Below are positions 15,813 through 42,871 of a DNA stretch of 64,000 bases, piece by piece. The DNA is from a virus (Duplodnaviria; Caudoviricetes). Made by a program: the position numbers and the translations under genes. The stretch lies in IMG/VR virus record IMGVR_UViG_3300036770_005357; one strand, 5' to 3'. The stretch's first letter is position 1. The number at the start of each line of letters is the position of its first letter. The notes beneath the pieces are model-generated. The model had not been told where the DNA came from. It saw only the letters and a list, made by a program, of their open reading frames with translations, and did not search any database.

Positions 15813-15997
15813 AGAAGTATAAATATAGAGTAAAAATTCACAATGTAGAGTCAACCGACGAATTGGAAAAAATCATGAATGAATATGGTTCCGAGGGAGT
15901 TCGTGTGACTAAGGTAGATTTTATTGAATCTAAGATAATTAATGGTAGACAAACTGCTAGATATACATTATACTTAGAAGAGAAAATCAAAGAATGA
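15809..15997 (+). CDS. hypothetical protein
   Basis: 62-aa ORF with ATGA overlaps. Confidence 0.5.
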   Translation: MKKYKYRVKIHNVESTDELEKIMNEYGSEGVRVTKVDFIESKIINGRQTARYTLYLEEKIKE

Positions 15998-16380
15998 ATA
16001 AAGAAAAATATTATCTATTTCTGGATGACATTAGAAATCCAGAAGATGTGACTTGGGTATCATTGCCTAAAACTGAGTGGATTGTTGTACGAAATTATAA
16101 AGATTTTCGTAATGCTATTACAACCAAAGGCATACCAAGTTTTGTTGCTTATGACCATGATTTGTGTAATCAACACTATCAACCTGTTAAAGCATTAAAC
16201 CAACGCAACATAGATTATAACAAATATGTTGAAAAGACCGGATATGAGTGTTGCAAGTTTTTGGTAAATGAATGTATGAAAAGAGTCATTAAACATCCTG
16301 ATTTTGCAGTTCACAGCATGAATCCAGTTGGTGCAAAAAATATTATTAGTTATGTGGAATCGTATAATAACAGTTTCTGA
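15994..16380 (+). CDS. cyclic-phosphate-processing receiver-like domain protein
   Basis: LFLDDIRNP, YDHDL, TGYECCKFL, HSMNPVG motifs. Confidence 0.75.
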   Translation: MNKEKYYLFLDDIRNPEDVTWVSLPKTEWIVVRNYKDFRNAITTKGIPSFVAYDHDLCNQHYQPVKALNQRNIDYNKYVEKTGYECCKFLVNECMKRVIKHPDFAVHSMNPVGAKNIISYVESYNNSF

Positions 16381-23012: not shown

Positions 23013-24110
23013 ATGAAGTTACCTATTCTTTATTCTCGTACAAATACTGGTGCTGTTCAAACTTGGACCGTTGAAGTTGTAGGCGATAAGTATCGCACTT
23101 TTTTCGGCCAGATTGATGGTATCATACAAAGTACCGAATGGACCTTTGTTGAAGCCAAGAATGTTGGTAAGAAAAATGCCACGACGGGCGAACAACAAGC
23201 ACTGAAGGAAGCCAATGCTCTTTGGAAGAAGAAGAAAGAGAGCGGTTATTTTGATGACATCGGTAATATTGATAATGATATCTTTACGGAACCTATGCTC
23301 GCTAAGAGTTATGATGACTATAAGGATGAAATTAAGTATCCGGTCTATAGTCAACCTAAGCTAGATGGTATCCGGTGTATTATTAAAAAGAATGGTATGT
23401 GGAGTAGGAATGGTAAACCAATCATTTCAGCTCCTCATGTACTGGAGGCTCTTAAGGACTTTTTTAATAAGTTCCCCACCGCAATTCTTGATGGTGAACT
23501 TTATTGTGATAAGTTAGCTAACGATTTCAATAAGATTTGTAGCTTGGTTAAGAAGACTGTTCCTACAAAGGAAGACCTTATTGAAAGTGCTAAAACTATT
23601 CAGTATTGGGTTTATGATTGGATTTTACCGGATGATTTCGGTGAACGGTCACATCAGATCAATGTCAATATTTTAAGTAATAATATTATTCGTAAGGTAC
23701 CTACTCATAGAGTTGATACACTTAATCAGCTTGATGATCTTTATGAAAAGTATATTGTTGAAGGATATGAGGGTCAGATGGTTCGTCTTGATAATGTTTA
23801 TGAAAACAAGCGTAGTAAGAATTTGCTTAAGCGTAAGGAGTTTCAAGACAGTGAATACAAGATTATTGATATTGTAGAGGGTGAAGGCAATAGGTCTGGT
23901 ATGGCTGGATATATGGTATTTAGGAATCACAAGGATATTCTGTTCCATAGTAATATTAAAGGAGATCGTGAATATTTGAAGGAACTGCTTAAGAACAAAA
24001 AGAAGTACATTGGTAAGATGGCTACAATTAAGTACTTTAATTTGACGCCTGGTGAGGAAATACCCAGATTCCCTTTTGTAATTAATATTGACCGTGAAAG
24101 TTATGAATGA
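23013..24110 (+). CDS. lig: ATP-dependent DNA ligase
   Basis: PMLA, motif I QPKLDGIRC, LDGELY, YEGQMVR, RSKNLLKRK, C-terminal OB fold ending IPRFP. Confidence 0.92.
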   Translation: MKLPILYSRTNTGAVQTWTVEVVGDKYRTFFGQIDGIIQSTEWTFVEAKNVGKKNATTGEQQALKEANALWKKKKESGYFDDIGNIDNDIFTEPMLAKSYDDYKDEIKYPVYSQPKLDGIRCIIKKNGMWSRNGKPIISAPHVLEALKDFFNKFPTAILDGELYCDKLANDFNKICSLVKKTVPTKEDLIESAKTIQYWVYDWILPDDFGERSHQINVNILSNNIIRKVPTHRVDTLNQLDDLYEKYIVEGYEGQMVRLDNVYENKRSKNLLKRKEFQDSEYKIIDIVEGEGNRSGMAGYMVFRNHKDILFHSNIKGDREYLKELLKNKKKYIGKMATIKYFNLTPGEEIPRFPFVINIDRESYE

Positions 24111-25520: not shown

Positions 25521-25781
25521 ATGGCAAAGAAAATTACAGAACATCTTGAACTAATAGCGCAACGAGTACCGCCCGGTGATAAATGGCGACTTGTGAATGA
25601 TACTCGTAAAATTATACACAATTCACTCACAGAAGCTTTAGAAGCTTATTTTATGGAAACTAAGTTTAAAGGTGAATATAGATTGGCACCGTTGGATAGT
25701 AAACTATATGTGATTAAATCAGTTGAAGAAGAAATCATTCCCGAAATAAAGAACTTCAATATTTACGGTGATCCTATTTAA
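25521..25781 (+). CDS. conserved phage hypothetical protein
   Basis: ELIAQRVPPGDKW ... L..ALEAYF pattern. Confidence 0.55.
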   Translation: MAKKITEHLELIAQRVPPGDKWRLVNDTRKIIHNSLTEALEAYFMETKFKGEYRLAPLDSKLYVIKSVEEEIIPEIKNFNIYGDPI

Positions 25782-26413
25782 TGTTTTATAATATTGTACA
25801 AATAGGTGCTTTTGTAGGTAATGACGATGTATATAAAATAATCATCAATGAACCTAATATAAATGCTTTGTTAATTGAACCCGTACCGTGGTACTTTGAT
25901 AAGTTAAAACAGAATTATGTTAACATACCCAATCCAAACCGTATATCATTTGATAATAGTGTTATACATACTTATGACGGTGAATGTACATTTCATTGTA
26001 TGAAAGAGGTTGAGTATGAATTTAATTATAATACCGACAAAAATTGGGGTCCAGAAATAAGCGGCGTAAATCTAGAACTAATTAAAGAACACGAACAATA
26101 TTTAAATAATCAACACTTTCAATACGAAACACTTAATTTAAAGTGTATAACTTCATTAAGCTTAATAAACAAGTATAATATAACAGATATAGAGTTTCTT
26201 AAGATTGATGCTGAAGGATTGGATTATGATTTGATCACTAATTGGCCATTTGACAAAGTAAAACCTAAATATCTTAAGTTTGAACACTGTCATTTAGACG
26301 GTCATATCAATAGGAATAGTTCAGCTAATACATTGAATTTATTTCTAAATAATAGAGGTTATAAGTTCCTCAAGGATGAAGGTATAGATAGGGTATATAC
26401 AAGAATTTTTTAA
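25781..26413 (+). CDS. FkbM-family SAM-dependent methyltransferase
   Basis: VQIGAFVG, LIEPVP, LKIDAEGLD and FEH motifs. Confidence 0.85.
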   Translation: MFYNIVQIGAFVGNDDVYKIIINEPNINALLIEPVPWYFDKLKQNYVNIPNPNRISFDNSVIHTYDGECTFHCMKEVEYEFNYNTDKNWGPEISGVNLELIKEHEQYLNNQHFQYETLNLKCITSLSLINKYNITDIEFLKIDAEGLDYDLITNWPFDKVKPKYLKFEHCHLDGHINRNSSANTLNLFLNNRGYKFLKDEGIDRVYTRIF

Positions 26414-27714: not shown

Positions 27715-28526
27715 AACACTTTAAACATATCGTCATCTACAGTTTGTTGTGATGTTGGTGTTACAAAGTATTTGGATAATACTTCATTTTTAGTTGGTTG
27801 TTGAACTACACCTTGATTTTCAAACTTGGTTTTCCAATCAGCCAACCATTTTCTTACATCGCCCGTATAAGATTTATTACCTACATGTACCAAATCAATG
27901 TTTGTATCTAAAAACACTTTACCACCCATTTGTTGCCACTTGAATCCCATGATGATATCTTCACTTACAAAGTGATTATTTGCATTAATTGTACATGCAC
28001 AAATATTCTTAGTTAATTCAGGAGCGCCTTCTTTTTCAGATACATAAAATTCATTTTCATTTTCAAATAACTGTTTAACACAATTCTTTGATAACTTCAA
28101 GAAACCACATCCTAATCCATTTACTTCAAGTATACCGTTGTCGTCAGGTACTATATTGAAATTACTCGCATTTTCTCCAAGTGCTTTAAAAGCATACAAT
28201 TCTTCATCGTCATTCTTTTTACGATATGTACCACCAATCATATCTTTATCACTTAGAACTAACTTTACAAAATCAGATGGGTTCCAACCAATATCGCTGT
28301 CAATAAAGAACAATACATCCACAGCACTTTGATAAGCTACTCTAAAATAATCATTTCTAGCTCTTTGTATCAAACTATCAAAACAAAGAAAGTATGGTAA
28401 AACTTTGATGTTGTTTTGTTCACAGAGTGGTATGGTATTGATTAGACTGTCCATGAAACGGACATCAAATCTACCATCATAACTTGGTGCTGCTAGTAAA
28501 ACTGTAATAGGTTTATTTTCGTTCAT
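27711..28526 (-). CDS. GT-A fold glycosyltransferase-like protein
   Basis: DSLIQRARN, FFIDSDIGW, LGCGFLKL, VSED, HVG. Confidence 0.75.
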   Translation of the reverse strand: MNENKPITVLLAAPSYDGRFDVRFMDSLINTIPLCEQNNIKVLPYFLCFDSLIQRARNDYFRVAYQSAVDVLFFIDSDIGWNPSDFVKLVLSDKDMIGGTYRKKNDDEELYAFKALGENASNFNIVPDDNGILEVNGLGCGFLKLSKNCVKQLFENENEFYVSEKEGAPELTKNICACTINANNHFVSEDIIMGFKWQQMGGKVFLDTNIDLVHVGNKSYTGDVRKWLADWKTKFENQGVVQQPTKNEVLSKYFVTPTSQQTVDDDMFKVL

Positions 28527-29347
28527 ATGTTGTAATTAAAAGCTTTATAAAACCAATTGTATTTTTCTGTAATATAGTTGCAGTTGTGTCTGCCCAATAC
28601 ACTAAGATAATCTTCGGGTACCTGTTCAATTTTATTTCTTATTAAGTGATCGCCAAATGGTCTATAGAAGACATCATTTTCTTTGGTAAATTGAGCTATA
28701 TTATTGAAATCGTGTTGGTAATATGGTATTTCAAGATAGTTGTATATTTTTCTTACTTCTTGTTCTGGATTTGCACTGAAGTCTTCAAACTTTATGAATA
28801 AGCACTTCTGTGCAATCTTTCTTACTATAACATCATATATCACATCAATAGGAGCACATAGTGGTGGTGCTACATTTAGATACATATCTACTCTTTTATC
28901 TACAGTAGTACCTTTCATTTCATTCCAGTTTTGCATGCCAGCGTCTAGGTGTTGATTGTCTCTAAACTTCTTTTCTAGACTGCTTACGATACTTCTTAGA
29001 TCTCGTATCATTATGATAACTTTTGGATTGGGATCAAACCAATTTACGAAATCATATGTTACACTCCAACCTCTACACTTATCTACAACATATTTTCTGT
29101 CAGTAACATTATTATAAAAACCATATAAAGCACTTTTACAAAATCCTTTGAATCCATTGTCCATGATCTTACTATCTTGTGCTTTGAATTCTATTGCGTT
29201 TGTATAGTTATTTTTTGCATTGAGCAATAGATCACAAAGACCGCTTGTTGGACTGCCGTATATGTCTGGATTTTGAGCAAGCAAATTTTGCACGAGAGTT
29301 GAACCTGCGCGAGGCATGCTACTTTGGAAAAACACTTTTTCTACCAT
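28523..29347 (-). CDS. sulfotransferase (PAPS-dependent, Sulfotransfer_3-like)
   Basis: 5'-PSB loop MPRAGSTL, VDKCR.W, 3'-PB IIMIRDLRSIVSS, IKFEDF..NPE. Confidence 0.85.
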   Translation of the reverse strand: MVEKVFFQSSMPRAGSTLVQNLLAQNPDIYGSPTSGLCDLLLNAKNNYTNAIEFKAQDSKIMDNGFKGFCKSALYGFYNNVTDRKYVVDKCRGWSVTYDFVNWFDPNPKVIIMIRDLRSIVSSLEKKFRDNQHLDAGMQNWNEMKGTTVDKRVDMYLNVAPPLCAPIDVIYDVIVRKIAQKCLFIKFEDFSANPEQEVRKIYNYLEIPYYQHDFNNIAQFTKENDVFYRPFGDHLIRNKIEQVPEDYLSVLGRHNCNYITEKYNWFYKAFNYNI

Positions 29348-29829: not shown

Positions 29830-30546
29830 TCAAGAACAAGCAATTTTAAAAGTAAAAGCTGCCGACTTTTCATATCGTTTTCTTAAATCAACGGAAATAG
29901 ATCCAAATACAGCAATATAACAAATACTTACCATTCCATACCAATTTTGACCCGTGCCATGCCATCCTAGTCTATGTGTTAAATTTGTACCAGCGTTACC
30001 ATTCCTTATTGTTGATGACAAAATATTTGGAACGCCAACCGATATGTTACCGGCAGTTACACCTGTATATCTACCATTTATGTTAACATCAGTTACGTTA
30101 TTTGATGAGGAGTCTTGCATTTCTATTGCAGCAAATGGTTGAGTTGTTGTGAGAAATGTATTTGTATAATAAGATAAAAATCCCTGACGAGGAAATCTAG
30201 TAACAAAACCATCAGTTGCTATGATTACATCAATAGTAATATGTACATAATTTGGAGATCTATTTAATTTACCAACTATAACATATGATTGATCAGCAGT
30301 TGTAGTTATTCCACTAGTACTTGTTAAAATAGTGTTAGTACCATTAAAATCTACCGCTGGATTTCCGTTAATAAGTCTACTATAATATGTTGGTCTAACT
30401 GTTGCTTCGGTAAAATCAGTTGTTGTAGCTCTATTTGACCATGTTGTTAAAGCACTACCATTACTTACTCCGGTTATAAATCTTGAATCTAGAACTATAA
30501 TAGCACCTGAAGATTTTGCGTTTAAATGTCTATTTCTTCTATGCAT
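29830..30546 (-). CDS. virion beta-sandwich (LamG-like) protein
   Basis: VLDSRFITG...WSNR...PT.....ING.PAVDFNG pattern. Confidence 0.55.
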   Translation of the reverse strand: MHRRNRHLNAKSSGAIIVLDSRFITGVSNGSALTTWSNRATTTDFTEATVRPTYYSRLINGNPAVDFNGTNTILTSTSGITTTADQSYVIVGKLNRSPNYVHITIDVIIATDGFVTRFPRQGFLSYYTNTFLTTTQPFAAIEMQDSSSNNVTDVNINGRYTGVTAGNISVGVPNILSSTIRNGNAGTNLTHRLGWHGTGQNWYGMVSICYIAVFGSISVDLRKRYEKSAAFTFKIACS

Positions 30547-30552
30547 ATATTA

Positions 30553-33500
30553 TTACGCTGTTGTATAAGTTATTTCTACGCCTAATAATCTAGCGTCTAC
30601 AGCTAAAGTATCACTTGCATTCGTCGCATCTCTATAAATTTCAAATATAATTGGTTTACTATTAGCCAATGAACCGCTTATTGTAATTGCACTTGTTGCC
30701 GGACTTATGTGCATATCATATGCTTTAAGCAATGTATCTGTAGCTGTTTGACCTGTACCCAGATTGCCTGTAGAATTAAGTGTATCATCATCCGAATAGA
30801 TTCTACCTCTTAATCCCCAAACAACTGCGCCTGAACCACCGTTGGCTGACCAATAGAATTTGCCTGTTACTGTACTGGAACCATTCCAATTATTTGGAAG
30901 TACTCGCATTACTTGTACATATTCAATTATACCTGCGTCAAAATCTAGAGTATCATAATTTACTCTAGCACTGCCTGTTAATTCTGTGCTATTTACACCG
31001 GACCCACTGAATGATCTTGGAATCATTTCGCCTGCACCTATCCAAATGTTTGAACTATTTGGAACAGTTTTCCATACAGTTTTTGTGCCTGTTGTATAAA
31101 GTACACTACCACTTGTACCAGCACTATTATTACCATCATAATAAGCACCGTTTAGTCTCATACTACCCGATACTTGCAATTTTTGTGATGGTTTATTTGT
31201 ACCTATACCTACTCTACTACCGCTTATAACGAAGTCATTGGCATTGTATTTACCCATGAATATTCTATCATCACTCCAAACATCTACTACAGGCAGACCA
31301 CTTACATCATTTACAGTGAATAGTGAACCTGACAATGTATCTGTAACATTGAAGAGTGTACCTGTACCACCATCTGTTCTTAATACGCTTAAATTACTAC
31401 CGCTTCTATATACTTGTAATTTAGCGGATAAGCTACCGGATACGCCTATACCTACGAAGCTACCGGTACTATGTTGCAATCCTTGACCAAAGGCACTACC
31501 ACTTGCGAATATCAAGTTAGCTATATTTAATTGATTACTACCAGCAGGTTTTCCTGCGTCAATATTGTGTCCTATTATTATATTACTGTTGCCTGTCGTT
31601 ATATTATCACCAGCATCAACGCCTACAGCTATATTTCGTTGACCACTTGTTAATGTACCTAAAGCGCCGTAACCGAATGCGTTGTTATCATTACCGGTCG
31701 TATTATTTACTAAAGAATTATATCCAAATGCACTATTAGCAATACCAATTGTATTAGCTTGTAATGCTTGATGTCCGAAAGCACTATTTTGTATACCCGT
31801 TGTATTACTTGCTAACGCTAAATAACCGAAAGCATTATTGTTATTGGTAGTATTATTTAGTAATGCATAGGCACCAAAAGCATTACTACGATTGCCGGAT
31901 GAGTTATTATTTAACGCTTTATTACCAAATGCTGTATTAGCACCACCCGTTTTATTTAATCTCAATGCGAAATAACCAAATGCACTGTTTAATCTACCAC
32001 TTGTATTTTGGTAGAGTGCTTGATTTCCAAATGCACTATTTCTATTTCCAGTTGTATTACTTGCTAAAGCATAATTACCGAAAGCATTATTATTATTTGT
32101 TATGTTATTATAAAGCGCTTTATAACCAAATGAATTATTAGCACTTCCACTTATATTTTTAAATCCAGACAGTCTTCCAAAACCATTATTACTTGATCCT
32201 AATACATTACTTGCAAGTGCTAAATGACCAAAAGCACTATTAATATTACCCGTTATATTAGCAATTAAACTACCATATCCAAACGCACTGTTTCTGGTTC
32301 CAATTGTATTGTTCTTTAATGCTAGATGACCAAACGCTGAATTTATACCAGTTGTATTACTTGCTAATGCTCTATAACCGAAAGCATTATTATTATTTGT
32401 AGTATTATTCTTTAATGCTTCATAACCAAATGCACTGTTAAAATTACCGACTAAATTTGCTCTTAAAGCGTTTGTACCAAATGCACTATTTCTTGTACCA
32501 CTTGTATTAAATATAGAAGCGTAATGACCAAATGCATTGTTGTCAACACCTGTTGTATTATTAAGAAGAGCACTGTTACCAAATGCATTGTTTCTTACAC
32601 CTGTTGTATTAACTTTTAATGATTGATAACCAAAAGCACTGTTAAAATTACCTATTGTATTACTTGCTAATGCTTGATGACCAAATGCACTGTTTTTATA
32701 ACCAGTTGTATTGCTTGCTAGAGCAAAGTAACCGAAAGCATTGTTATTGTTAGTGGTATTTGCTCTGAGAGCATACATACCAAATGCATTATTATTATTT
32801 CCAGCAGTATTTAATCTGAGAGCAGATAAGCCTATTGAATTATTATTATTACCCGTTAAATTATCAAATTGTGATGCTCCACCTATAGCAATATTATATA
32901 ATCCGGATGTGTGTTTATTTAAAGCATAAGCACCGAAAGCAGTATTATACCTACCAGTCGTGTTACTTGCTAACGCTCTGTGACCAAATGCACTATTATT
33001 ATCTCCGGTTATATTATTTTGTAATGCTTGATGACCAAATGCACTATTAGCAGTACCAGTTGTATTGCTTGCTAATGCTCTATAACCAAATGCGTTATTA
33101 TTGTTTGTGGTGTTATTATATAATGCTTGATGACCAAACGCATTATTTCTTACACCGATTTGATTACTTGTTAATGCTAAGTGACCGAACGCATTATTTT
33201 GTGTACCTGTAGTATTACTACCTAAAGCTTTATAACCAAATGCGTTATTGTTATCACCCGTTGTATTTACAACAAGACTCAACTCGCCGAATGCGTTGTT
33301 TCTAGAACCAATCGTGTTATCTCTTAAAGCAGCTAAACCAAAAGCATTGTTTCTTACACCCGCCGTATTATTTGTTAAAGCGGCATAACCAAATGCACTA
33401 TTTCGGGTACCGATTGTATTGTCTTGTAACGCATAATTACCAAATGCTGTATTATATCTACCACTTGTATTACTTGCTAATGCAAAACTACCAAATGCAC

Positions 33501-36500
33501 TATTATTTGCAGCTGTATTAGTATAGAGTGCTTTATAACCGAAAGCACTGTTACTACTGCTTATTGTATTCGCGTTAAGTGCTCTATGTCCAAATGCACT
33601 ATTTCTTTGACCGGTAGTATTATTTTTTAACGCGTAGTAACCGAATGCGTTATTATTGCTTGTAGTATTGTTATATAAAGCAGCGGTACCAACAGCATTA
33701 TTATTATTACCTACAGTATTATTTTGTAAAGCCGATCTACCTATTGCAATATTATTACGACCAGTTGTATTAAATCTTAAAGCAGCTACGCCAAATGCAT
33801 TATTTTGATAACCAAATGTGTTGCTTGCTAATGCTAATATACCAAATGCATTGTTATTATTACCAGTAGTATTGCTTATTAAAGCTTTATAACCAAAAGC
33901 ACTATTACCAGCACCAGTCGTATTATTTTGTAATGTTAAATGACCAAAGGCACTGTTTTGTACACCAGTAGTATTGCTTGCTAGAGCATAACTACCAAAT
34001 GCATTGTTAGCATTTGTCGTATTACTACTTAAAGCACTTCTACCAAATGCGTTATTATTACTACCAATTGTATTATCTGTTAAAGCTCTTCTGCCAAATC
34101 CATTGTTATTTATACCGGAAATATTATCTCTCAAAGCCCAATCACCAAAAGCATTGTTGCTGTCACCAATTGTATTGTTTTGTAAAGCACCATTACCAAA
34201 TCCGTTGTTTAGTATACCAGTAGTATTATTTTGTAAAACACCATTACCAAATGCATTGTTGTTTCTTCCGATCGTATTATTTCTTAATGCGGCATAACCA
34301 AATGCATTGTTTTGTGTACCGGTTGTATTTGATCTTAAAGCAAATGCACCGAATGCACTATTTCCTCCCGCTATATTCGTATATAGTGCTCCATAACCGA
34401 ATGCACTGTTACTACTGCTTATTGTATTAGCTTGTAATGCTCTATGACCAAAAGCGCTGTTACGATATCCTGTTGTATTACTTCTCAAAGCATAAGCACC
34501 AAACGCATTATTATTATTCGTAGTATTATTTTGTAAAGCTACATTACCAAATGCGTTGTTATTGTTACCTATACTATTACTATTTAAAGCACCATTGCCA
34601 AATGCATTATTATATTGACCACTTGTATTATTTGTTAAAGCTTGTGTACCAAACGCGTTATTTCTTGTACCCGTTGTATTATTTACTAAAGCTCTATCAC
34701 CAAAAGCATTATTTCTAACACCGATTGTATTACTTGCTAGAGATTGATAACCAAATGCACTATTTTGTACACCGGTTGTATTATTTTGTAATGCTTGATG
34801 ACCAAAAGCACTATTAGCAGTACCAGTTGTATTGCTTGCTAAAGCATAAAATCCGAAAGCATTATTATTGTTTGTGGTATTTGCTTGTAAAGCATTTCTA
34901 CCAAAAGCATTGTTACTACCACCGGTTTGATTTGATGCTAATGCTAATGTACCAAAAGCATTATTATTAGCAGCGTCAACAATATTATGACCGGCTCTAT
35001 AACCAAATGCATTGTTATTGTTACCAATAGTAACACTATATAATGTTCTATAACCAAATCCACTGTTATTTACACCGGTTGTATTAAATCTTAATGTATT
35101 TACACCAAACGCATTATTTCTCGCACCTATCGTATTACTTTGTAATGCATTTATTCCGAAAGCATTATTATTACTACCTACAGTATTTTTATACAGTGCA
35201 TAATGACCGAACGCTGCATTTTGTACACCACTTGTACTATTTCTAAGTGCTGAATTACCAAATGCGTTATTGACTATACCCGTGGTATTACTTGCTAAAG
35301 CTAAATAACCGAAAGCATTATTTCCAAAACCAATTGTATTGTTTTGCAATGCTTTATGACCGAAAGCACTATTAACATTACCAGTTGTATTACTTGCTAA
35401 TGACAAGTGACCGAAAGCACTGTTACCATGACCTGTTGTATTATTTGTTAATGACTTATAACCAAAAGCATTATTGTTGTTGGTTGTATTAGCTACTAAA
35501 GCATAAAATCCAAAGGCATTGTTATTATTACCCGATACATTATTTACTAAAGTTTGTGAACCAACTGCTGTGTTGCCATTACCAACTGTATTTGTTACCA
35601 AAGCGAAATTGCCTAGAGCTGTATTTTTTATACCAATGGTATTTGCATATAAAGCTCCTCGTCCAAATGCGATATTGTTGTTACCCGATGTATTTAGTCT
35701 TAAAGCATGACTTCCAAATGCACTGTTCCAATATCCGGTTGTATTAAGTTGTAATGCTAAATATCCAAATGCAGCATTTTCATATCCGGTTATATTATTT
35801 GCTAATGCTAAACTACCAAATGCACTGTTACTATATCCTCTATTTGTATAAAGTGCTAAATAACCGAAAGCACTGTTACTGCCACTGATTGTATTTGCAT
35901 TAAGTGCTCTGTGACCAAATGCACTATTTTTAGTTCCGGTTGTATTGCTTCGGAGAGCCATATAACCAAACGCGTTATTATTACTCGTTGTATTATTATA
36001 TAATGCTTGAAAGCCTACAGCGTTATTATTATTACCAATTGTATTATTAGTTAAAGCACTTCTTCCTACAGCAACATTTCTAATACCACTTGTATTAAAT
36101 ACTAAAGCGTTTGTACCTAATGCTGTATTATTTGTTCCCGTTGAATTTTGTTGTAATGCTTGAAGACCTACAGCAACATTATAATTACCGAATGTATTAA
36201 ACATTAAAGCCGCTTGACCAAATGCACTGTTAAAATTACCGGTAGTATTACTAGCTAAAGCTATGTCACCGAATGCACTGTTTTGTTTACCTCTATTTGT
36301 ATATAGTGCTTTATAACCAAATGCACTGTTACTGCTACTAATTGTATTAGCTTGTAACGCTCTATGACCAAATGCACTGTTTCTATGTCCGGTTGTGTTA
36401 CTTGCTAATGCAAAATTACCGAAAGCGTTATTACCACTTGTTGTATTATTTAAAAGAGTTTGATAACCGAATGCATTATTATTGTCACCAACTAAATTAT

Positions 36501-38847
36501 TATTTAGAGATTGCATTCCAAATGCATTATTTAATACACCGGTTGTGTTACTAAATAATGCATTTAATCCTACAGCAGTATTTCGCCCTCCGGTTGTATT
36601 GTTAAATAAAGCTGCACTTCCTATTGCTACATTATATTTGCCGAATGTATTTTTATATAAAGTAGTGCTCCCAAATGCGACATTAGCTCTGCCTGTAGTA
36701 TTATTTTTTAACGATTGATTGCCGAATGCGCTATTAGAATCTCCTTTGTTCGTATAAAGTGATTTATAACCGAAAGCGCTATTACTACCACTGATAGTAT
36801 TTGCTCTTAATGCTTGATGACCGAAAGCACTGTTTTGTGCACCAGTTGTATTGCTTGCTAAAGCCAAATAGCCAAAAGCATTATTGTTACTAGTTGAATT
36901 ATTTCTTAAAGCATAAAAACCGAATGCATTATTTCTATTAACAGGCGTACCCAATCCTAAAGCACCAACACCAACAGAAACATTGTTAATACCTGATGTA
37001 TTAGAATATAAAGAACCTACACCAACAGCTGTATTTGACGCTCCTGTAGTATTTTTATTTAAAGCATTATTACCAAACGCACTATTATTTGTACCAATCG
37101 TATTAAACATTAACGATTTATAACCAAACGCACTATTACCACCACCTGTTGTATTTTTATTTAAAGCATAATAACCAAATGCATTATTATTATTACCTAT
37201 TGTATTATTATTTAAAGCGCCGTATCCAAATGCATTATTTTTATAACCCGAAATATTACTTGTAAGAGCTAAATTACCAAATGCATTGTTATAATTACCA
37301 CTTGTATTATTCTTCAGTGATTGATTACCGAAAGCATTGTTAGATATACCAGTTGTATTGCTTGCTAGAGCAAGATAACCGAATGCACTGTTAAAATTAC
37401 CTATTGTATTATTCTTCAATGCTTGAAGACCAAATGCACTATTAGCTACACCTGTTGTATTACTTGCTAAAGCATAACTACCAAAAGCACTATTATTATT
37501 TGTAAGATTATTATACAAAGCATAAATACCGAATGCGTTATTACGAAACCCCGATACATTTTTAGTTAATGATTTTGCACCAAATGCTGTATTTGAACCG
37601 CCTGTACGATTGAGTCTTAATGCGAAATAACCGAATCCGCTATTGAAAGTACCACTTGTATTTTGATATAATGTTTGATGGCCAAATGCAGAATTAACTG
37701 CGCCTGTTGTATTACTTGCTAGTGCTAAATAACCGAAAGCATTATTACTGTCACCTGTGTGTTTACTTAAAGCGTAAAATCCAAATGCATTGTTTCTATT
37801 ACCAATTAAATTATATTGTAAAGCATTTCCACCAAATGCATTATTTCTAACGCCACTCGTATTTCTTCTTAAAGCACCAACGCCAAATGCACTATTAACA
37901 TTACCAGTTGTATTGCTTGCTAAAGCTATATAACCAAAAGCGCTATTACCTTGACCAATCGTATTATTTAGTAATGTTTTGTGGCCAAATGCACTGTTGC
38001 TTATTCCAGTTGTATTGCTTGCTAACGCTAGATAACCGAAAGCATTATTAGCATTTGTAGTGTTGTTTAGTAAAGCACCGTGCCCAAATGCGTTGTTATT
38101 ATTACCTCCTAAATTAGCTTGTAATGTATCAACTCCGAATGCGTTATTGTTTACTCCAGTTACATTTACTTTTAATGCATAAGCACCGAAAGCGTTGTTA
38201 AAATTTGCATTGGAACTTGCTAATGCTGCGGATCCAAATGCTGAATTTAAAATACCAGATGTATTTGTTATCAAACTTTGATGTCCCACAGCAGTATTTG
38301 CATAACCTGTAGTATTACCACTTAATGCTTGTCTACCAACTGCGGTATTTGCATAACCTGTAGTATTGTTATACATTGCATAACTACCGAAAGCACTATT
38401 ACTATTACCAGTTGTATTGTTGTATAGAGTGCCTCTACCAAATGCTGTATTTAATGTACCACCTGTATTAAAATTTAAAGCACCAGCGCCTACAGCAGTA
38501 TTGCTTATTACAACACCACCACCTCTACCAACTCCTATACCTTGAATTACAGCAGATTGACTTACATATAAATTTCCTTGTACTGATAATTTAGAACCGG
38601 GACTTGTTGTACCTATGCCGATATTACCACCGGTTTCATACATTACGCTATTGCCAATAGAATTGGCAGCCGTAAACTTAGGAATATAATTTGTTGTACC
38701 CGCTATATTTGTGGTTACTATACTACCACTGAAGCTTCCCGTAAAACTTTTCGCTTCTACACTGTTCTCAAACCTTACAAAGCTACTGCTTACAGTGATA
38801 TTACCGCTGCTTGTTATAAAGCTATTTTTTATTTGAATTTTAGCCAT
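30553..38847 (-). CDS. giant fibre/adhesin with ~165 14-aa N.AFG..AL..N.TG repeats
   Basis: Continuous ORF; start ATG 38847 (the track start is TTG); repeats span ~31570-38500; C-terminal beta-sandwich domain. Confidence 0.9.
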   Translation of the reverse strand: MAKIQIKNSFITSSGNITVSSSFVRFENSVEAKSFTGSFSGSIVTTNIAGTTNYIPKFTAANSIGNSVMYETGGNIGIGTTSPGSKLSVQGNLYVSQSAVIQGIGVGRGGGVVISNTAVGAGALNFNTGGTLNTAFGRGTLYNNTTGNSNSAFGSYAMYNNTTGYANTAVGRQALSGNTTGYANTAVGHQSLITNTSGILNSAFGSAALASSNANFNNAFGAYALKVNVTGVNNNAFGVDTLQANLGGNNNNAFGHGALLNNTTNANNAFGYLALASNTTGISNSAFGHKTLLNNTIGQGNSAFGYIALASNTTGNVNSAFGVGALRRNTSGVRNNAFGGNALQYNLIGNRNNAFGFYALSKHTGDSNNAFGYLALASNTTGAVNSAFGHQTLYQNTSGTFNSGFGYFALRLNRTGGSNTAFGAKSLTKNVSGFRNNAFGIYALYNNLTNNNSAFGSYALASNTTGVANSAFGLQALKNNTIGNFNSAFGYLALASNTTGISNNAFGNQSLKNNTSGNYNNAFGNLALTSNISGYKNNAFGYGALNNNTIGNNNNAFGYYALNKNTTGGGNSAFGYKSLMFNTIGTNNSAFGNNALNKNTTGASNTAVGVGSLYSNTSGINNVSVGVGALGLGTPVNRNNAFGFYALRNNSTSNNNAFGYLALASNTTGAQNSAFGHQALRANTISGSNSAFGYKSLYTNKGDSNSAFGNQSLKNNTTGRANVAFGSTTLYKNTFGKYNVAIGSAALFNNTTGGRNTAVGLNALFSNTTGVLNNAFGMQSLNNNLVGDNNNAFGYQTLLNNTTSGNNAFGNFALASNTTGHRNSAFGHRALQANTISSSNSAFGYKALYTNRGKQNSAFGDIALASNTTGNFNSAFGQAALMFNTFGNYNVAVGLQALQQNSTGTNNTALGTNALVFNTSGIRNVAVGRSALTNNTIGNNNNAVGFQALYNNTTSNNNAFGYMALRSNTTGTKNSAFGHRALNANTISGSNSAFGYLALYTNRGYSNSAFGSLALANNITGYENAAFGYLALQLNTTGYWNSAFGSHALRLNTSGNNNIAFGRGALYANTIGIKNTALGNFALVTNTVGNGNTAVGSQTLVNNVSGNNNNAFGFYALVANTTNNNNAFGYKSLTNNTTGHGNSAFGHLSLASNTTGNVNSAFGHKALQNNTIGFGNNAFGYLALASNTTGIVNNAFGNSALRNSTSGVQNAAFGHYALYKNTVGSNNNAFGINALQSNTIGARNNAFGVNTLRFNTTGVNNSGFGYRTLYSVTIGNNNNAFGYRAGHNIVDAANNNAFGTLALASNQTGGSNNAFGRNALQANTTNNNNAFGFYALASNTTGTANSAFGHQALQNNTTGVQNSAFGYQSLASNTIGVRNNAFGDRALVNNTTGTRNNAFGTQALTNNTSGQYNNAFGNGALNSNSIGNNNNAFGNVALQNNTTNNNNAFGAYALRSNTTGYRNSAFGHRALQANTISSSNSAFGYGALYTNIAGGNSAFGAFALRSNTTGTQNNAFGYAALRNNTIGRNNNAFGNGVLQNNTTGILNNGFGNGALQNNTIGDSNNAFGDWALRDNISGINNNGFGRRALTDNTIGSNNNAFGRSALSSNTTNANNAFGSYALASNTTGVQNSAFGHLTLQNNTTGAGNSAFGYKALISNTTGNNNNAFGILALASNTFGYQNNAFGVAALRFNTTGRNNIAIGRSALQNNTVGNNNNAVGTAALYNNTTSNNNAFGYYALKNNTTGQRNSAFGHRALNANTISSSNSAFGYKALYTNTAANNSAFGSFALASNTSGRYNTAFGNYALQDNTIGTRNSAFGYAALTNNTAGVRNNAFGLAALRDNTIGSRNNAFGELSLVVNTTGDNNNAFGYKALGSNTTGTQNNAFGHLALTSNQIGVRNNAFGHQALYNNTTNNNNAFGYRALASNTTGTANSAFGHQALQNNITGDNNSAFGHRALASNTTGRYNTAFGAYALNKHTSGLYNIAIGGASQFDNLTGNNNNSIGLSALRLNTAGNNNNAFGMYALRANTTNNNNAFGYFALASNTTGYKNSAFGHQALASNTIGNFNSAFGYQSLKVNTTGVRNNAFGNSALLNNTTGVDNNAFGHYASIFNTSGTRNSAFGTNALRANLVGNFNSAFGYEALKNNTTNNNNAFGYRALASNTTGINSAFGHLALKNNTIGTRNSAFGYGSLIANITGNINSAFGHLALASNVLGSSNNGFGRLSGFKNISGSANNSFGYKALYNNITNNNNAFGNYALASNTTGNRNSAFGNQALYQNTSGRLNSAFGYFALRLNKTGGANTAFGNKALNNNSSGNRSNAFGAYALLNNTTNNNNAFGYLALASNTTGIQNSAFGHQALQANTIGIANSAFGYNSLVNNTTGNDNNAFGYGALGTLTSGQRNIAVGVDAGDNITTGNSNIIIGHNIDAGKPAGSNQLNIANLIFASGSAFGQGLQHSTGSFVGIGVSGSLSAKLQVYRSGSNLSVLRTDGGTGTLFNVTDTLSGSLFTVNDVSGLPVVDVWSDDRIFMGKYNANDFVISGSRVGIGTNKPSQKLQVSGSMRLNGAYYDGNNSAGTSGSVLYTTGTKTVWKTVPNSSNIWIGAGEMIPRSFSGSGVNSTELTGSARVNYDTLDFDAGIIEYVQVMRVLPNNWNGSSTVTGKFYWSANGGSGAVVWGLRGRIYSDDDTLNSTGNLGTGQTATDTLLKAYDMHISPATSAITISGSLANSKPIIFEIYRDATNASDTLAVDARLLGVEITYTTA

Positions 38848-38872
38848 AAATGTAGTCAATTATAAATATTAA

Positions 38873-41800
38873 CTACATTTTTCTTATCATCGCTTTTATA
38901 ATATAACTTTCACCTTCACCAGCTTCCAACGCTTGAGCTATAACTTTACCAAATAAATCCTTCTTGAATATAGATCCTCGTTTTACAGCCTTACCATGAC
39001 CCTTTTTCTTGCTGGTAACTATATAATCACCTATTTCTACCTTGCCAGTTACTAATATAGGTTCAGCACCCAATACGATAGGTTCATCTCTACCATTTTT
39101 AGCTACACCCATTACCAATTCATCTTCATCAATTTCACAAGGCGCACATCCATTGTACTTCCATACAACAATTGTACCGGTAGCCAATTGAGCTAAATCT
39201 CTAGTTCTTAAATTAGCTTCTAATATACCACCTACAGTGGTTTGTACGACATATATATCACTAAATCTATTGCTTGGACCACCTAAAGCATATACACCAT
39301 CACCTACAGGAGCAATACTACCACTTACTTGTAATCTAAATGATGGACTTGTTGTACCTATACCAACATTACCGTTACTATCAACATTAACTCTTCTATT
39401 ACCTTGACCGTCGGCAAGTATGATGTTGTTAGCTAATGTTGCACTTAAACTTGTTACATTCGCACCGAGAATTGTATTATAATTACCCGTGGTAATTCCT
39501 CTACCTGTATTAAATCCGAGTATTGTATTTGTTCTACCAGTTGTTACATCATAACCAGATGATTGACCTACCGCGGTATTTTCCAAACCAGTTGTAGTAC
39601 TTCTTAATGAATAAGCACCAAATGAACTGTTGTCAGCACCTGTAGTTTGACTAAACAAAGCTTCTCTACCGAAAGCACTATTTTTTGAACCTATTGTATT
39701 GTTTTGTAAAGTGGTATGACCGAAAGCACTATTATTTGTTCCGGTTGTATTGCTTGCTAATGCTAAATAACCAAATGAATTGTTATTGTTTGTGGTGTTA
39801 TTATACAGAGCTTTTAATCCAAAAGCGTTGTTATTACTACCTATTGTGTTAAGCTGTAATGTTTGATGACCGAATGCGGCGTTATTTACACCCGATGTAT
39901 TACTTCTTAAAGCATAATAACCGAAAGCATTATTATTTGCACCGGTAGTATTATTTCTTAAAACACTTGAACCAAATGCATTGTTTTTAGCACCCGTACT
40001 ATTTGTATACAATGCTCTAAAACCAAATGCATTATTATTTCCACCTGTAGCTGCGCCTAGAGCAGAACCTCTTAAAGCTTCTGTACCAAATGCGTTGTTA
40101 GCTGCACCCGCTGTATTATTATACAGTGTTCTAAATCCGAAAGCATTATTTGAACCCGCGTTGATATTTTTCAAAGATCCATAACCAAATGCGCAAATAT
40201 TGTTAACACTTCCTGATTGATACATCGCAAATGCACCAAAAGCACTATTATTGAGTCCACCGCTTCTTCTTTGAAACGCTCTGTAACCAAATGCACTGTT
40301 ACCATAACCGGTTGTATTACTTGCTAATGCAACATGTCCAAATGCACTGTTTCTAAACCCGGTTGTATTACTTGCTAGTGTTTGATGACCAAATGCACTG
40401 TTATTTACGCCGGTTGTATTAGCAGTTAAAGATTGATATCCGAAAGCATTGTTGTTATTTGTAGTATTATTTCTCAAAGCATTTCTACCGAATGCGTTGT
40501 TGTTACTACCGATTAAATTTTCGGTTAAAGCTGCAGATCCAAAAGCTGTATTTAAAGTACCGGAAGTATTTTTGCTTAATGCATATGCGCCAAAAGCGCT
40601 ATTTCTTATACCCGTTGTATTGCTTATTAATGCATTATGACCAAATGCACTATTATAATTACCAAATGTATTATTATTTAATGCTCTATGACCAAATGCA
40701 CTATTAAATGTACCAGTTGTATTGTTCGCTAATGCCGAATAACCGAAAGCATTATTATTGTCTGTTGTATTATTATAGAGAGCTTTAAATCCAAATCCAT
40801 TATTATTGTTACCAATAGTATATGATAGTGCTCTGTAACCAAATGCATTATTATAATTACCATTACCACCCGTGGATAAAGCCTTATATCCAAAAACATT
40901 ATTGCCAGTACCACCACCGCCATATAACGCATAATTGCCAAATGCGTTATTTTTAATGTTACCAGCCCCACCTTTTATAGCACTAAATCCAAACGCATTA
41001 TTATGTTCGCCATTTTGATTGTTATTTAAAGTAAAATTACCAAATGCATTATTTTTTTGACCGGATGAATTATATTGTAAAGCATAATAACCAAATGCAT
41101 TATTATGATCGCTTTGATTGCTATACAAAGCACTTACACCAAATGCATTGTTGTTTAGGCCAATAAGATTTCTATTTAAAGCACTAAATCCAAAAGCACA
41201 ATTATTTCTACCACTAGTATTGCTGGCTAATGCTAAATCACCAAATGCACTGTTTTTATAACCAGTTGTATTATTTATAAATGCACTATTACCTACAACT
41301 GTATTAGTAACTATATCACCACCACCTCTACCGATTCTTACACCATCAATTATGCTAGTTGCACTGCTACCACTAACATGGAAAATTGCTGCTGGAGATG
41401 TAGTACCAATACCAATTCTACTACCACTTTCAAATATAGGCGTTACAGTATCACCTATAGTAGTACTACTTGTAAATTTAACAATTGTATTGGTTGTACC
41501 ACTTACAGCTACACTTGTACCACTCGTACCAGCACTGCCAGATGTACCTGAACTACCAGATGAACCGCTTGTACCTGATGATCCGGAAGATCCACTTGTA
41601 CCGCTGCTGCCAGATGTACCTGAACTTCCACTCGTACCTGATGATCCGGATGAACCACTTGTACCTGATGATCCGGAAGATCCGCTTGTACCAGATGAAC
41701 CACTTGTACCGCTGCTGCCAGATGTACCTGAACTTCCACTAGTACCCGACGATCCGGATGAACCACTCGTACCACTACTACCACTTGTACCACTCGTACC

Positions 41801-42871
41801 ACTACTACCACTTGTACCGCTGCTACCAGATGATCCATTTTCACCACTTGTTCCACTTGAACCAGATGTTCCGCTTGTACCGGAAGATCCAGATGAACCA
41901 CTGCTACCAGATGATCCACTGCTACCGGAACTACCACTTGTACCACTGCTGCCAGATGATCCATTTTCACCACTTGTTCCACTTGATCCGGATGTTCCAC
42001 TTGATCCGGAAGAACCACTACTTCCACTTGATCCGGATGTACCACTTGATCCACTACTACCACTAGTACCATTTTCACCACTGCTGCCTGATGTACCACT
42101 TGAACCACTAGAACCGGATGTTCCACTTGATCCGGAAGAACCACTACTTCCACTTGTACCACTTTCACCACTACTACCACTACTACCATTTTCACCCGAT
42201 GTACCGCTGGTACCATTACTACCTGTAACTTGTCTTAAACCACCTCTTGTGGCTAATGCGTATCCACTTATAGGACTTATGAATGTAAATCTTGCGTGGT
42301 TATTATCTAATAATGTGGTTGTAGATGGTAAGATATATTGATCTGAAGTATTGAATGCTTGTACAATTACTTCTTTTGCACCTAAACTATGTGTAAAGTT
42401 CCATACACTTTGATTTGTAAAACTTTGTACGATACTATTACCGAAATTGGTTGCGTAACTTGATGAATATGTGAATAGTGCCCAACTACTTGTTATAGGG
42501 TAAGTGCTACCCGTAGTGAGTGTTGTACCACCACTACTAGCATTTAATGCATAACTTGCTGTAAGTGCCCAACTACTTGTTATGGGATACAAGCTACCAG
42601 TATTTAATGTAGTTCCACCATTTAAAGCATATATAGCCCAACTCGCTGTAATTGGATATGTACTACCTGTATATAAGGTACCGCCTATTGTTCTTTTACC
42701 TACATTATTATTACCGTCCAGTGTTAAAAACTCTGTATTTGAAGAAACTGTGGGTATATTGGTTAATTTAACACGGGAAGATGTAACTCCCAACAATACA
42801 TTCAATGATCCGGATAAAAAAAGTGATCCTGTGACTGTTGGATTTAATATTTGCGGTGAGTCTATTTTCAT
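38873..42871 (-). CDS. fibre protein: HNLG module, Gly-X-Y (GSS/GTS) tract, ~44 14-aa repeats, C-terminal chaperone-like domain
   Basis: Translation; C-terminus PI.VTG.V..GDYIVTS.K.GHG...K.I..ALE. Confidence 0.85.
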   Translation of the reverse strand: MKIDSPQILNPTVTGSLFLSGSLNVLLGVTSSRVKLTNIPTVSSNTEFLTLDGNNNVGKRTIGGTLYTGSTYPITASWAIYALNGGTTLNTGSLYPITSSWALTASYALNASSGGTTLTTGSTYPITSSWALFTYSSSYATNFGNSIVQSFTNQSVWNFTHSLGAKEVIVQAFNTSDQYILPSTTTLLDNNHARFTFISPISGYALATRGGLRQVTGSNGTSGTSGENGSSGSSGESGTSGSSGSSGSSGTSGSSGSSGTSGSSGENGTSGSSGSSGTSGSSGSSGSSGSSGTSGSSGTSGENGSSGSSGTSGSSGSSGSSGSSGSSGSSGTSGTSGSSGTSGENGSSGSSGTSGSSGTSGTSGSSGTSGSSGSSGTSGSSGTSGSSGTSGSSGTSGSSGSSGTSGSSGSSGTSGSSGTSGSSGTSGSSGSSGTSGSSGSSGTSGSAGTSGTSVAVSGTTNTIVKFTSSTTIGDTVTPIFESGSRIGIGTTSPAAIFHVSGSSATSIIDGVRIGRGGGDIVTNTVVGNSAFINNTTGYKNSAFGDLALASNTSGRNNCAFGFSALNRNLIGLNNNAFGVSALYSNQSDHNNAFGYYALQYNSSGQKNNAFGNFTLNNNQNGEHNNAFGFSAIKGGAGNIKNNAFGNYALYGGGGTGNNVFGYKALSTGGNGNYNNAFGYRALSYTIGNNNNGFGFKALYNNTTDNNNAFGYSALANNTTGTFNSAFGHRALNNNTFGNYNSAFGHNALISNTTGIRNSAFGAYALSKNTSGTLNTAFGSAALTENLIGSNNNAFGRNALRNNTTNNNNAFGYQSLTANTTGVNNSAFGHQTLASNTTGFRNSAFGHVALASNTTGYGNSAFGYRAFQRRSGGLNNSAFGAFAMYQSGSVNNICAFGYGSLKNINAGSNNAFGFRTLYNNTAGAANNAFGTEALRGSALGAATGGNNNAFGFRALYTNSTGAKNNAFGSSVLRNNTTGANNNAFGYYALRSNTSGVNNAAFGHQTLQLNTIGSNNNAFGLKALYNNTTNNNNSFGYLALASNTTGTNNSAFGHTTLQNNTIGSKNSAFGREALFSQTTGADNSSFGAYSLRSTTTGLENTAVGQSSGYDVTTGRTNTILGFNTGRGITTGNYNTILGANVTSLSATLANNIILADGQGNRRVNVDSNGNVGIGTTSPSFRLQVSGSIAPVGDGVYALGGPSNRFSDIYVVQTTVGGILEANLRTRDLAQLATGTIVVWKYNGCAPCEIDEDELVMGVAKNGRDEPIVLGAEPILVTGKVEIGDYIVTSKKKGHGKAVKRGSIFKKDLFGKVIAQALEAGEGESYIIKAMIRKM

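Follow-up and report, generated by a model that had tools for sequence, protein, structure and literature searches.

The 64,000-nucleotide stretch of viral DNA analysed here (the window; IMG/VR record IMGVR_UViG_3300036770_005357) carries on its minus strand a giant gene, P0001, whose product consists for the most part of short tandem repeats. Its open reading frame extends from an upstream in-frame TTG at 38859 to a stop codon at 30553-30555 (30553 to 38859; 2,768 aa), although translation most likely begins at the ATG at 38847. The start-site evidence comes from a relative, P0003, which begins MAKIQIKNSFITSSG and aligns with P0001 from residue 5 on. P0001 is a real gene, and it probably encodes a structural fibre protein of a large, uncultured T4-like aquatic phage. 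When 8 kb of the module was compared by megablast with 50,697 phage records, no match was found, and hence no close cultured relative. The features of the locus are the following.

30553 to 38847, minus strand: giant fibre gene P0001, encoding 2,764 aa when translated from its ATG (open reading frame list and translation)
38707 to 38847, minus strand: N-terminal segment of P0001, about 47 aa, 69% identical to the start of P0003 across 32 aa
38503 to 38706, minus strand: cap module of about 68 aa ahead of the array (TTNYIPKFT...GNIGIGTTSP...GRGGG), similar to a module of P0002
31636 to 38502, minus strand: tandem repeat array, 136 units and 2,289 aa with no spacers (segmentation, position counts, DNA periods, PHROG, AF2)
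31474 to 31635, minus strand: degenerate terminal repeats and neck (NIAVGVDAGDNITTG..., QLNIANLIFA), from segmentation
31060 to 31473, minus strand: fibre module or modules, about 138 aa, with an IGIGT..P..KLQVSG motif that recurs in other giant fibres
30556 to 31059, minus strand: C-terminal predicted jelly-roll, 168 aa, of CBM6/35/36-like fold (AF2 and structure comparison)
38873 to 42871, minus strand: fibre gene P0002, 1,332 aa (translation, Pfam Collagen, repeat segmentation, cap alignment)
29830 to 30546, minus strand: small gene, 238 aa, co-oriented and starting 6 nt past the P0001 stop (open reading frame list)

The array fills residues 120-2408 (TTG numbering) without interruption, much as the initial annotation had it in describing some 2300 aa of unbroken repeats. 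Segmentation yields 136 regular units flanked by one or two degenerate ones, rather than the roughly 165 first estimated, and the period of 14 residues then given has to be replaced: 113 units are 17 aa long, 23 are 16 aa long and none has 14 aa. The motif itself was read correctly. The units follow the consensus N-[NS]-A-F-G-x-x-A-L-x-x-N-T-T-G-x-x, 119 of the 136 having Phe at position 4, and the remark that Phe stands where Val or Ile is usual holds for the family, position 4 being Val (40%), Ile (26%) or Leu (19%) across 3,194 units of 127 homologues. N1 and G5 are invariant in 113/113 17-mers and are specified by differing codons (AAT or AAC; four Gly codons), from which it follows that the array is not due to chance. 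At the DNA level repeat periods of 51 and 102 nt are found, and the copies are only 63-81% identical, which argues for old conservation at the protein level and not for an assembly artefact. The array is strongly basic (106 K+R versus 21 D+E) and contains 132 N-x-S/T triplets. Similarity between units has weak maxima at spacings of 9 and 17-18 units, and the 16-mers come back every 3-12 units; given such weak peaks and irregular spacing, no super-repeat is claimed.

By PHROG profile and shared unit, the array belongs to a family of 17-residue NTAVG-type fibre repeats. It matches PHROG 23837, 6002 and 4636 (E=0, 0 and 5.6e-247, in 18-29 matched stretches), families labelled 'virion structural protein' or 'tail spike', as well as annotated tail fibres of pelagiphages, roseophages, P-SSM2 and SPO1. 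Its relatives include 1,282 long proteins of 1,500-4,800 aa, variously labelled 'tail fiber domain-containing', 'YadA-like head' and 'FhaB-like', most of which end in an S74 fibre chaperone. The giant proteins named 'tail fiber domain-containing' or 'beta strand repeat-containing' are uncharacterised, as are the phage fibres, for example those annotated in Pelagibacter phage HTVC112P, Methylophilales phage Venkman, P-SSM2 and SPO1 (gp2.52). These NTA[VIL]GxxALxxNTTGxx fibres share with P0001 the 17/16-aa unit, its conserved positions, cap and neck motifs of the IGIGTTSP type and a C-terminal tip that is modular. P0001 differs from them in having Phe for V/I/L at position 4 and N/S for T/V at position 2, and in ending with a CBM-like jelly-roll instead of the S74 chaperone; PF13884 (Peptidase_S74) has no match in P0001 or P0002. 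The longest uninterrupted array among about 275 sampled relatives has 81 units, as against 136 in P0001, so that 'longest array of its kind' applies within that sample. P0001 is an extreme member of a common, structurally unsolved phage and bacterial fibre-repeat family. Neither Pfam nor NCBIfam matches the array or either end, with P0001 searched whole and in pieces, and a 281-aa piece draws nothing from Pfam even at E<=1. Likewise no PDB sequence is matched at E<=10 by the protein or by a profile of the array, although HMMER composition filters may hide weak PDB and Pfam matches of such a sequence. The literature search returned no specific account of a 17-residue tail-fibre repeat, nor of Hep_Hag in phage fibres.

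The modules at the two ends of the array resemble parts of other fibres. The N-terminal segment, which resembles the start of the otherwise mosaic relative P0003, is probably a virion-attachment handle. The cap is 46% identical (E 7e-23) to a P0002 module that directly follows a collagen triple-helix tract, the QLNIANLIFA neck motif is found twice in P0003, and the stretch 31060 to 31473, modelled with low confidence as a single chain by AF2, is found again, in as many as 19 copies, in other giant fibre proteins. The C-terminal 168 aa are modelled well (block-mean pLDDT 82-98) as a beta-jelly-roll of the CBM6/35/36 class. Foldseek retrieves Eph ligand-binding domains and CBM35/22/36 at E ~1e-4, and VIA-align superimposes the model on CBM36 and an agarase CBM with Z 12.2 and 2.5-2.9 A rmsd over 123-125 residues, the range for CBM36, CBM6 and agarase CBMs overall being Z 12.2-11.1, 2.5-3.1 A and 119-135 residues. 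Identity to solved CBMs is just 5-17% and Pfam has no match for the domain. The predicted fold suggests that this domain is probably a receptor (glycan) binder. At E<=1e-10 a query containing it finds over 5,000 proteins, many of them matched in this C-terminal part alone and at their own C-terminus; the locus search of viral contigs gave no relatives of the C-terminal 335 aa.

P0001 and four other fibre-like genes form one run, closely spaced and all in the same orientation. The genes flanking it match PHROG tail-fibre families with collagen-like tracts, one being a ConA-like lectin, and a neighbouring protein is 30-34% identical to virion structural proteins of T4-like cyanophages. Within and beside the run the phage has genes for glycan, sulfation and methylation functions, with a sulfotransferase, a methyltransferase and a putative glycosyltransferase among the neighbours. 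The gene thus sits in a tail-fibre module, and the original proposal of a giant virion fibre built of beta-solenoid-type repeats, related to those of YadA heads and with an unusual Phe ladder, is supported. When all fibre genes of the window are compared, the 17-mer occurs in P0001 and P0002 only. P0002 is composed, in order, of an N-terminal domain, a Gly-X-Y collagen tract (about 41516-42229, residues about 215-452; PF01391, E 7.5e-33), the cap (41306-41506), 17/16-aa repeats (39581-41305), a neck and a C-terminal domain. The second gene had been credited with about 44 repeats of the P0001 type; the type is indeed shared, whereas segmentation counts about 34 regular and about 3 degenerate units. 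The 238-aa gene downstream, possibly fibre-associated, has no Pfam or PHROG match and one distant relative, on a viral contig (L001) from the related-locus search.

How the array folds was approached through one AF2 run on residues 271-608 as a single chain, with a 6-row alignment of paralogous segments. The model (pLDDT 84.2, pTM 0.78) places about three short strands in each 17-mer, and a wide VIA-align search finds its best fits among right-handed beta-helices of the EtpA/Vag8 type (2.9-3.6 A rmsd), a class that takes in EtpA/FhaB-type TpsA proteins and autotransporter passengers (Vag8, Ag43, TibA). On EtpA (8vba) it aligns with Z 19.1 and 2.9 A rmsd over 333/338 residues, and on 7akv with Z 18.4; from the EtpA alignment we read one coil per repeat. 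The array is predicted to be a three-faced right-handed beta-solenoid, the three-stranded right-handed coil being a feature of the single-chain AF2 model only. AF2 tends to favour solenoids for repeat sequences, and Foldseek with the array model gives no PDB match at E<=1e-3 and just weak rows for beta-helix and LRR structures. Differences from the TpsA and autotransporter helices are also apparent: Pfam detects no TPS secretion domain or autotransporter beta-barrel in P0001, identity to the solved helices is 5-7%, and the P0001 coil of 17 residues is shorter than those of right-handed beta-helix adhesins, which have about 19-25 residues. The 'FhaB-like' proteins of prasinoviruses and Bodo saltans virus are grouped with the right-handed helices; BFVD models of viral 'FhaB-like' proteins show 33-37% identity and TM up to 0.82, and similar viral proteins have been described from AF models as right-handed beta-3-solenoids (PMC12906663).

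What we infer for P0001 concerns its trimeric state, length, attachment point, receptor class and direction of coil turn. The short N-terminal handle would fix the protein to the virion and the cap module of about 68 aa would start the beta-solenoid, in which each of the 136 17/16-residue repeats would form one coil with a rise of about 0.48 nm. Three parallel chains would then make a stiff rod, likely about 65 nm long at that rise per rung, and not the 80 nm that had been calculated. The trimer is proposed by analogy, because the paralogue P0002 has a similar cap and repeats right after a collagen tract, which must be trimeric; P0001 has neither collagen nor S74, and the solved S74-type fibre tips are trimers (PMC10769870). 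Because the conserved residues come as neighbouring pairs (A3-F4, A8-L9, N12-T13), the strands may be packed on both faces, against the coil interior and against adjacent chains, with N1 and N12 as Asn ladders at the turns and F4 as a continuous Phe ladder. The rod would hold out the CBM-type jelly-roll for a first, reversible contact with host surface polysaccharide, while its basic, Asn/Thr-rich surface may add weak lateral binding. A rod of 65 nm with a glycan-binding-type tip, as modelled, suggests first contact with a thick host polysaccharide layer.

The initial annotation assigned the array to the left-handed trimeric beta-roll of YadA-type heads, and one part of this stands. The repeats are related: in the homologue P0095, 17-mers run unbroken into 14-mers, after which comes S74, and these 14-mers are matched by Pfam YadA_head (E 2.5e-12) as well as by a solved head, that of BoaA (3s6l; E 0.0055). 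The YadA-like heads (YadA 1P9H, BoaA 3S6L, BpaC 7O23, UspA1 3PR7) have in common with P0001 an A-hydrophobic-G core and, as proposed for its turns, Asn ladders; like them P0001 is a probable trimer, its repeat number is expandable and the 4.8 A rise per layer of YadA-type heads (PMC9543794) would apply. The array would be far longer than any of the solved heads, much as was claimed relative to typical ones, the largest described, BpaC, having 42 predicted layers (PMC9543794) against 136 in P0001. Whether the array is itself a true left-handed parallel beta-roll trimer, with its coil enlarged from 14 to 17 residues and the three-fold axis of a rod of about 65 nm lined by Phe4, the counterpart of the Ile that precedes Gly in NSVAIG, is doubtful. 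The 14-mers share the first half of the unit, x-x-A-[VIF]-G-x-x-[AS], with the array, PF05658 is present in several family members, ESM-Atlas neighbours are auto-named 'YadA-like head domain-containing', BpaC shows the highest sequence identity (21%) in the structural match list, and marine phage tail fibres have been assigned as YadA-like (3S6L) in print (PMC3909814). Against this, solved rolls have 14 residues per layer, or 15 as in UspA1 (PMC9543794), as opposed to 17/16 in P0001; PF05658 finds no match in P0001 at E<=1; and the residue three before Gly, hydrophobic in true 14-mers, is polar (N/S). The structure comparison, made with the single-chain AF2 model only, also weakens the assignment, that model deviating by 8.7 A from BpaC and 7.9 A from UspA1. 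Nor does Pfam detect in P0001 the coiled-coil stalk and C-terminal membrane anchor of trimeric autotransporters.

Published labels for the 17-mer are in conflict between a YadA-like left-handed roll and an FhaB-like right-handed helix, for a repeat that lacks both a Pfam model and a solved structure and yet is among the commonest long-fibre building blocks of aquatic phages, giant viruses and ultrasmall or predatory bacteria. With 136 near-perfect units, no spacers and a defined cap and tip, P0001 is an unusually clean test object, and a structure of its type of repeat could settle handedness, chain packing and rise, and hence fibre reach, for the whole family.

It is also conceivable, if unlikely, that the 17-mer constitutes a beta-solenoid class of its own, neither the 14-mer left-handed roll nor the classical right-handed helix. 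As a separate matter, and just as unlikely, the fibre may be modified by the products of the phage's glycan, sulfation and methylation genes. The N-x-S/T triplets and a Thr ladder, one set per coil, would then bear sulfated sugars, giving a regularly spaced 'bottle-brush' fibre. The beta-helices of TibA and AIDA-I are glycosylated along their coils, and the chlorovirus 'glyco-repeat' proteins have the same fold prediction as the P0001 array.

The three-solenoid build has its weak side in the precedent of solved fibre parts beside S74 chaperones, which are intertwined triple beta-helices and not three separate solenoids (PMC10769870). On the model of such stalks (K1F endosialidase, T5 pb1, Bdellovibrio mosaic adhesive trimer or MAT fibres), the three chains of P0001 would intertwine as a triple-stranded beta-helix or beta-prism, with each 17-mer spanning about two faces and a rod of roughly 130 nm. 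Like P0001, these fibres are built from phage-fibre modules and have swappable C-terminal binding tips; the solved MAT, T5 and K1F structures, which do not include the P0001 shaft repeat, are intertwined trimers, and the S74 in which most family members end is a chaperone for triple-beta-helix folding (PMC10769870); moreover, single-chain AF2 cannot reveal strand exchange. We nevertheless consider intertwining improbable, since P0001 and P0002 lack S74 and AF2 makes a confident closed coil from one chain. The 14-mers that adjoin the 17-mers of P0095 match YadA-type heads, which are not intertwined, and the uneven unit (10 residues from G5 to G15, 7 from G15 to the next G5) would fit poorly to an equal-faced three-fold prism.

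There remains the placement of the fibre on the virion. That P0001 forms some other appendage, such as a whisker or head fibre, or is not carried on the particle and instead is released or displayed during infection, might be argued from the label of two of the three PHROG families, just 'virion structural protein', from an N-terminal handle that matches no known baseplate adaptor and from giant viruses of eukaryotes, which bear the 17-mer on tail-less particles; but this is a poor prospect beside a run of co-oriented fibre-like genes, a C-terminal binding-type domain such as receptor-binding proteins have, and relatives in cultured phages annotated as tail fibres or spikes.

The giant fibre protein P0001 is encoded by a single ORF on the minus strand, 30553..38859, which yields 2,768 aa when translated from an in-frame TTG. 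Translation almost certainly begins at the ATG at 38847 (residue 5 in the TTG numbering, which is kept here for P0001 residues), because the N-terminus of P0003, its nearest relative (MAKIQIKNSFITSSG), aligns exactly to that Met; the end coordinate of the initial annotation is the same position. Segmentation of the protein, by anchoring on A-[FVIL]-G triplets that were then chained, places the repeat array at residues 120 to 2408 with zero spacers and divides it into 136 units, 113 of 17 aa and 23 of 16 aa. The motif, the coordinates, the uninterrupted length of about 2,300 aa and the dominance of Phe that had been noted initially are all borne out, position 4 being a Phe codon in 119 of the 136 units. 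The 14-residue period and the estimate of ~165 repeats are incorrect and give way to these values, and the ~44 repeats ascribed to the next gene, which encodes the fibre protein P0002, are reduced to about 34.

Among the 113 17-mers, N1 and G5 are invariant (113/113), followed by L9 (108/113), N12 (107/113), A3 and G15 (106/113 each), F4 (98/113), T13 (90/113) and A8 (87/113), while positions 6, 7, 10, 11, 16 and 17 vary freely. Asn makes up 21% of the array, which has a single Pro and no Cys and contains 132 N-x-S/T triplets and 106 basic versus 21 acidic residues, for a net charge of about +85. Its DNA has periods of 51 and 102 nt with an identity of only 63-81%, and every synonymous codon occurs at the invariant Asn and Gly positions; what is conserved is therefore the protein sequence, and this conservation is old. 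Recent duplication and assembly artefact are both ruled out as origins of the array by the same identity range and varied codons.

Searches of the array against Pfam and NCBIfam gave no match. PHROG families 23837 and 6002 ("virion structural protein") and 4636 ("tail spike protein") match it with E=0 to 6e-247, each over 18-29 stretches. By tblastn the repeat is present in annotated tail fibres of pelagiphages, roseophages, P-SSM2/5, SPO1-like Bacillus phages and a haloarchaeal virus, and in the "FhaB-like adhesion protein" of a Methylophilales phage. A search among 5.8 billion proteins returned 1,282 matches of 1,522-4,844 aa, most with a C-terminal S74 fibre chaperone and a few with Pfam YadA_head, named, where names are given, "tail fiber domain-containing", "beta strand repeat-containing" or "trimeric autotransporter adhesin". 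Because the family consensus, N-T-A-[V/I/L]-G-x-N-A-L-x-x-N-T-T-G-x-x (3,194 17-mers from 127 fetched relatives), has V/I/L at position 4, P0001 is, by its sequence, a Phe-type variant, and this type is common to P0001, P0002 and the database homologues P0003, P0066, P0094 and P0111. Counted loosely, P0001 has 138 units in one unbroken stretch; the runner-up among about 275 fetched relatives has 81. The gene does not represent a novel type of system: it stands at the extreme of a fibre-repeat family that is already known and abundant and whose structure is unsolved.

The fold of the array was predicted in one single-chain AF2 run on a 20-unit stretch (residues 271-608), for which six paralogous segments, non-overlapping and aligned in register, served as input. 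The model (mean pLDDT 84.2, pTM 0.78) is all-beta, its strands recurring as about 6+3+2 residues per 17-mer. Foldseek against the PDB gave no significant match to it, and an exhaustive VIA-align search gave the following.

EtpA (8vba): Z 19.1, rmsd 2.9 Å, 333/338 residues aligned
Vag8 (7akv): Z 18.4, rmsd 3.1 Å
phi29 gp12 (3gq7): Z 16.3, rmsd 3.6 Å
Several tailspikes: Z 13.4-16.1, rmsd 3.8-6.8 Å
TibA (4q1q): Z 14.9, rmsd 5.2 Å
BpaC (7o23), YadA-type head: Z 14.6, rmsd 8.7 Å, 21% identity (the highest identity listed)
UspA1 (3pr7), YadA-type head: Z 14.4, rmsd 7.9 Å
Hexapeptide left-handed helices: Z about 10, rmsd about 10 Å

The matches ahead of the YadA-type heads (EtpA, Vag8 and so on) are right-handed three-faced beta-helices. 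The Z-score, derived from internal distances, is blind to mirror images, which rmsd distinguishes; because rmsd favours the right-handed helices, the model is read as right-handed, with one coil per repeat. It resembles structures predicted for viral proteins, with TM up to 0.82 (Bodo saltans virus "FhaB-like", chlorovirus "glyco-repeat", P-SSM5 and Tenacibaculum phage proteins), and prasinovirus proteins of such kind are described, on the basis of AF models, as right-handed beta-3-solenoids (2026, PMC12906663), but this agreement is not independent evidence, because it comes from the same kind of prediction.

It is also possible that the array is a YadA-type left-handed roll, and several observations speak against the right-handed reading. 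In the homologue P0095, 17-mers run unbroken into 14-mers that match Pfam YadA_head (E 2.5e-12) and the solved BoaA head 3s6l, and its N-terminal part matches YadA itself (1p9h, E 1e-9); ESM-Atlas neighbours carry the automatic name "YadA-like head", and marine phage fibres have been assigned as YadA-like in print (PMC3909814). In solved rolls each layer comprises 14 or 15 residues and adds a rise of 4.8 Å, and the predicted layers number at most 42 (PMC9543794). The specific assignment made initially, a 14-mer YadA beta-roll forming an ~80-nm rod, is not borne out, nor are its derived numbers, the units being of 17/16 aa and 136 in all. An intertwined triple beta-helix, the form of solved fibre parts adjoining S74 chaperones (PMC10769870), is possible too and would give a rod of roughly 130 nm. 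The right-handed and YadA-roll readings both imply one rung per repeat, so that under either the modelled rod would be about 65 nm long. The earlier idea of a very long adhesive fibre carrying an aromatic ladder holds in broad terms. The P0001 gene is real and striking, and its greatest use is as an ideal test case for working out how the 17-mer family folds.

P0001 residues 52-140, which take in the cap ahead of the array, align with residues 456-543 of P0002 (46% identity, E 7e-23), where the cap begins four residues past a 238-aa Gly-X-Y tract (Pfam Collagen, E 7.5e-33). Collagen is an obligate trimer, and the same cap and repeats directly follow it in P0002, so that in both proteins these parts almost certainly form trimers. 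Conserved array residues adjoin in pairs (A3-F4, A8-L9, N12-T13), so that both strand faces seem constrained, a pattern that supports continuous interchain packing, as inferred rather than measured. The C-terminal ~240 aa of P0002 (38873-39601, minus strand) contain no S74 chaperone; their sole match is sub-threshold, to the end of the endosialidase tail-spike model PF12219 (E 3.3e-4), and the last ~130 aa have no family match. Near the P0002 N-terminus (residues ~68-130, ~42480-42670, minus strand) stand three tandem copies of a ~29-aa unit, TGS.YPITSSWAL..., visible in the DNA as an 87-nt tandem repeat.

The first ~47 residues of P0001 are shared with the otherwise mosaic P0003 and are likely an attachment handle. 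P0003 (ENA metagenome) also has Phe-type repeats, and because it pairs the same handle with an array interrupted by Laminin_G_3 and metallophosphatase-like domains (precomputed Pfam), its sequence suggests that related phages carry a mosaic fibre set on a common handle. At the other end, the P0001 array is followed by one or two degenerate units, a QLNIANLIFA neck and about 138 aa of an IGIGT..P..KLQVSG module, found in up to 19 copies in other giant fibres. The last 168 aa, modelled by AF2 from a 39-sequence alignment, form a beta-sandwich (pLDDT mostly above 90) that matches CBM36, CBM6, CBM35 and agarase CBMs (Z 12.2-10.6, rmsd 2.5-3.1 Å) and, by Foldseek, Eph ligand-binding domains and CBMs. 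As a query, the last 335 aa retrieve >5,000 proteins at E<=1e-10, many of them matching over the last domain only, at their own C-terminus. We infer that the tip would bind glycan, a shared fold not being a shared ligand.

In the stretch that starts at ~26.7 kb and extends past 60 kb, almost every gene is on the minus strand, with tight spacing. Upstream of P0001 are the following, with more virion proteins beyond the last.

38873-42871, minus strand, P0002
42949-43674, minus strand, ConA-like lectin
43680-47696, minus strand, 1,338-aa fibre with about 20 GNVGIGTTSP modules
47711-52165, minus strand, 1,484-aa collagen-like fibre

The modules of the 1,338-aa fibre are 60-90 aa each and centred on GNVGIGTTSPxxKLxV; because the same motif caps the P0001 and P0002 arrays, it looks like a general building block of this phage's fibres. 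Downstream of P0001, and near the fibre run on the opposite strand, are the following.

6 nt past the P0001 stop, 238-aa gene with no assigned family
28523-29347, minus strand, sulfotransferase (Pfam), downstream of the 238-aa gene
25781-26413, plus strand, FkbM-type methyltransferase (Pfam)
12131-12568, plus strand, APS kinase (Pfam)

The last three are in the fibre gene run or next to it, and the phage's neighbouring sulfation and glycan genes may decorate the regular N-T-T ladder of P0001. A virion protein near P0001 has 30-34% identity to T4-like cyanophage proteins, and a DNA-level search with 8 kb of the fibre module against 50,697 phage records gave no match; an uncultured T4-like aquatic phage fits both results. 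The early region, which adjoins the fibre module, includes four plus-strand genes.

14440-15081, plus strand, ThyX
15994-16380, plus strand, cREC_REC domain protein
21727-22734, plus strand, RNA ligase
23013-24110, plus strand, ATP-dependent DNA ligase

A GIY-YIG-type homing endonuclease gene (56141-57013, minus strand; PHROG 314, E 6e-39) sits within the virion-protein run.
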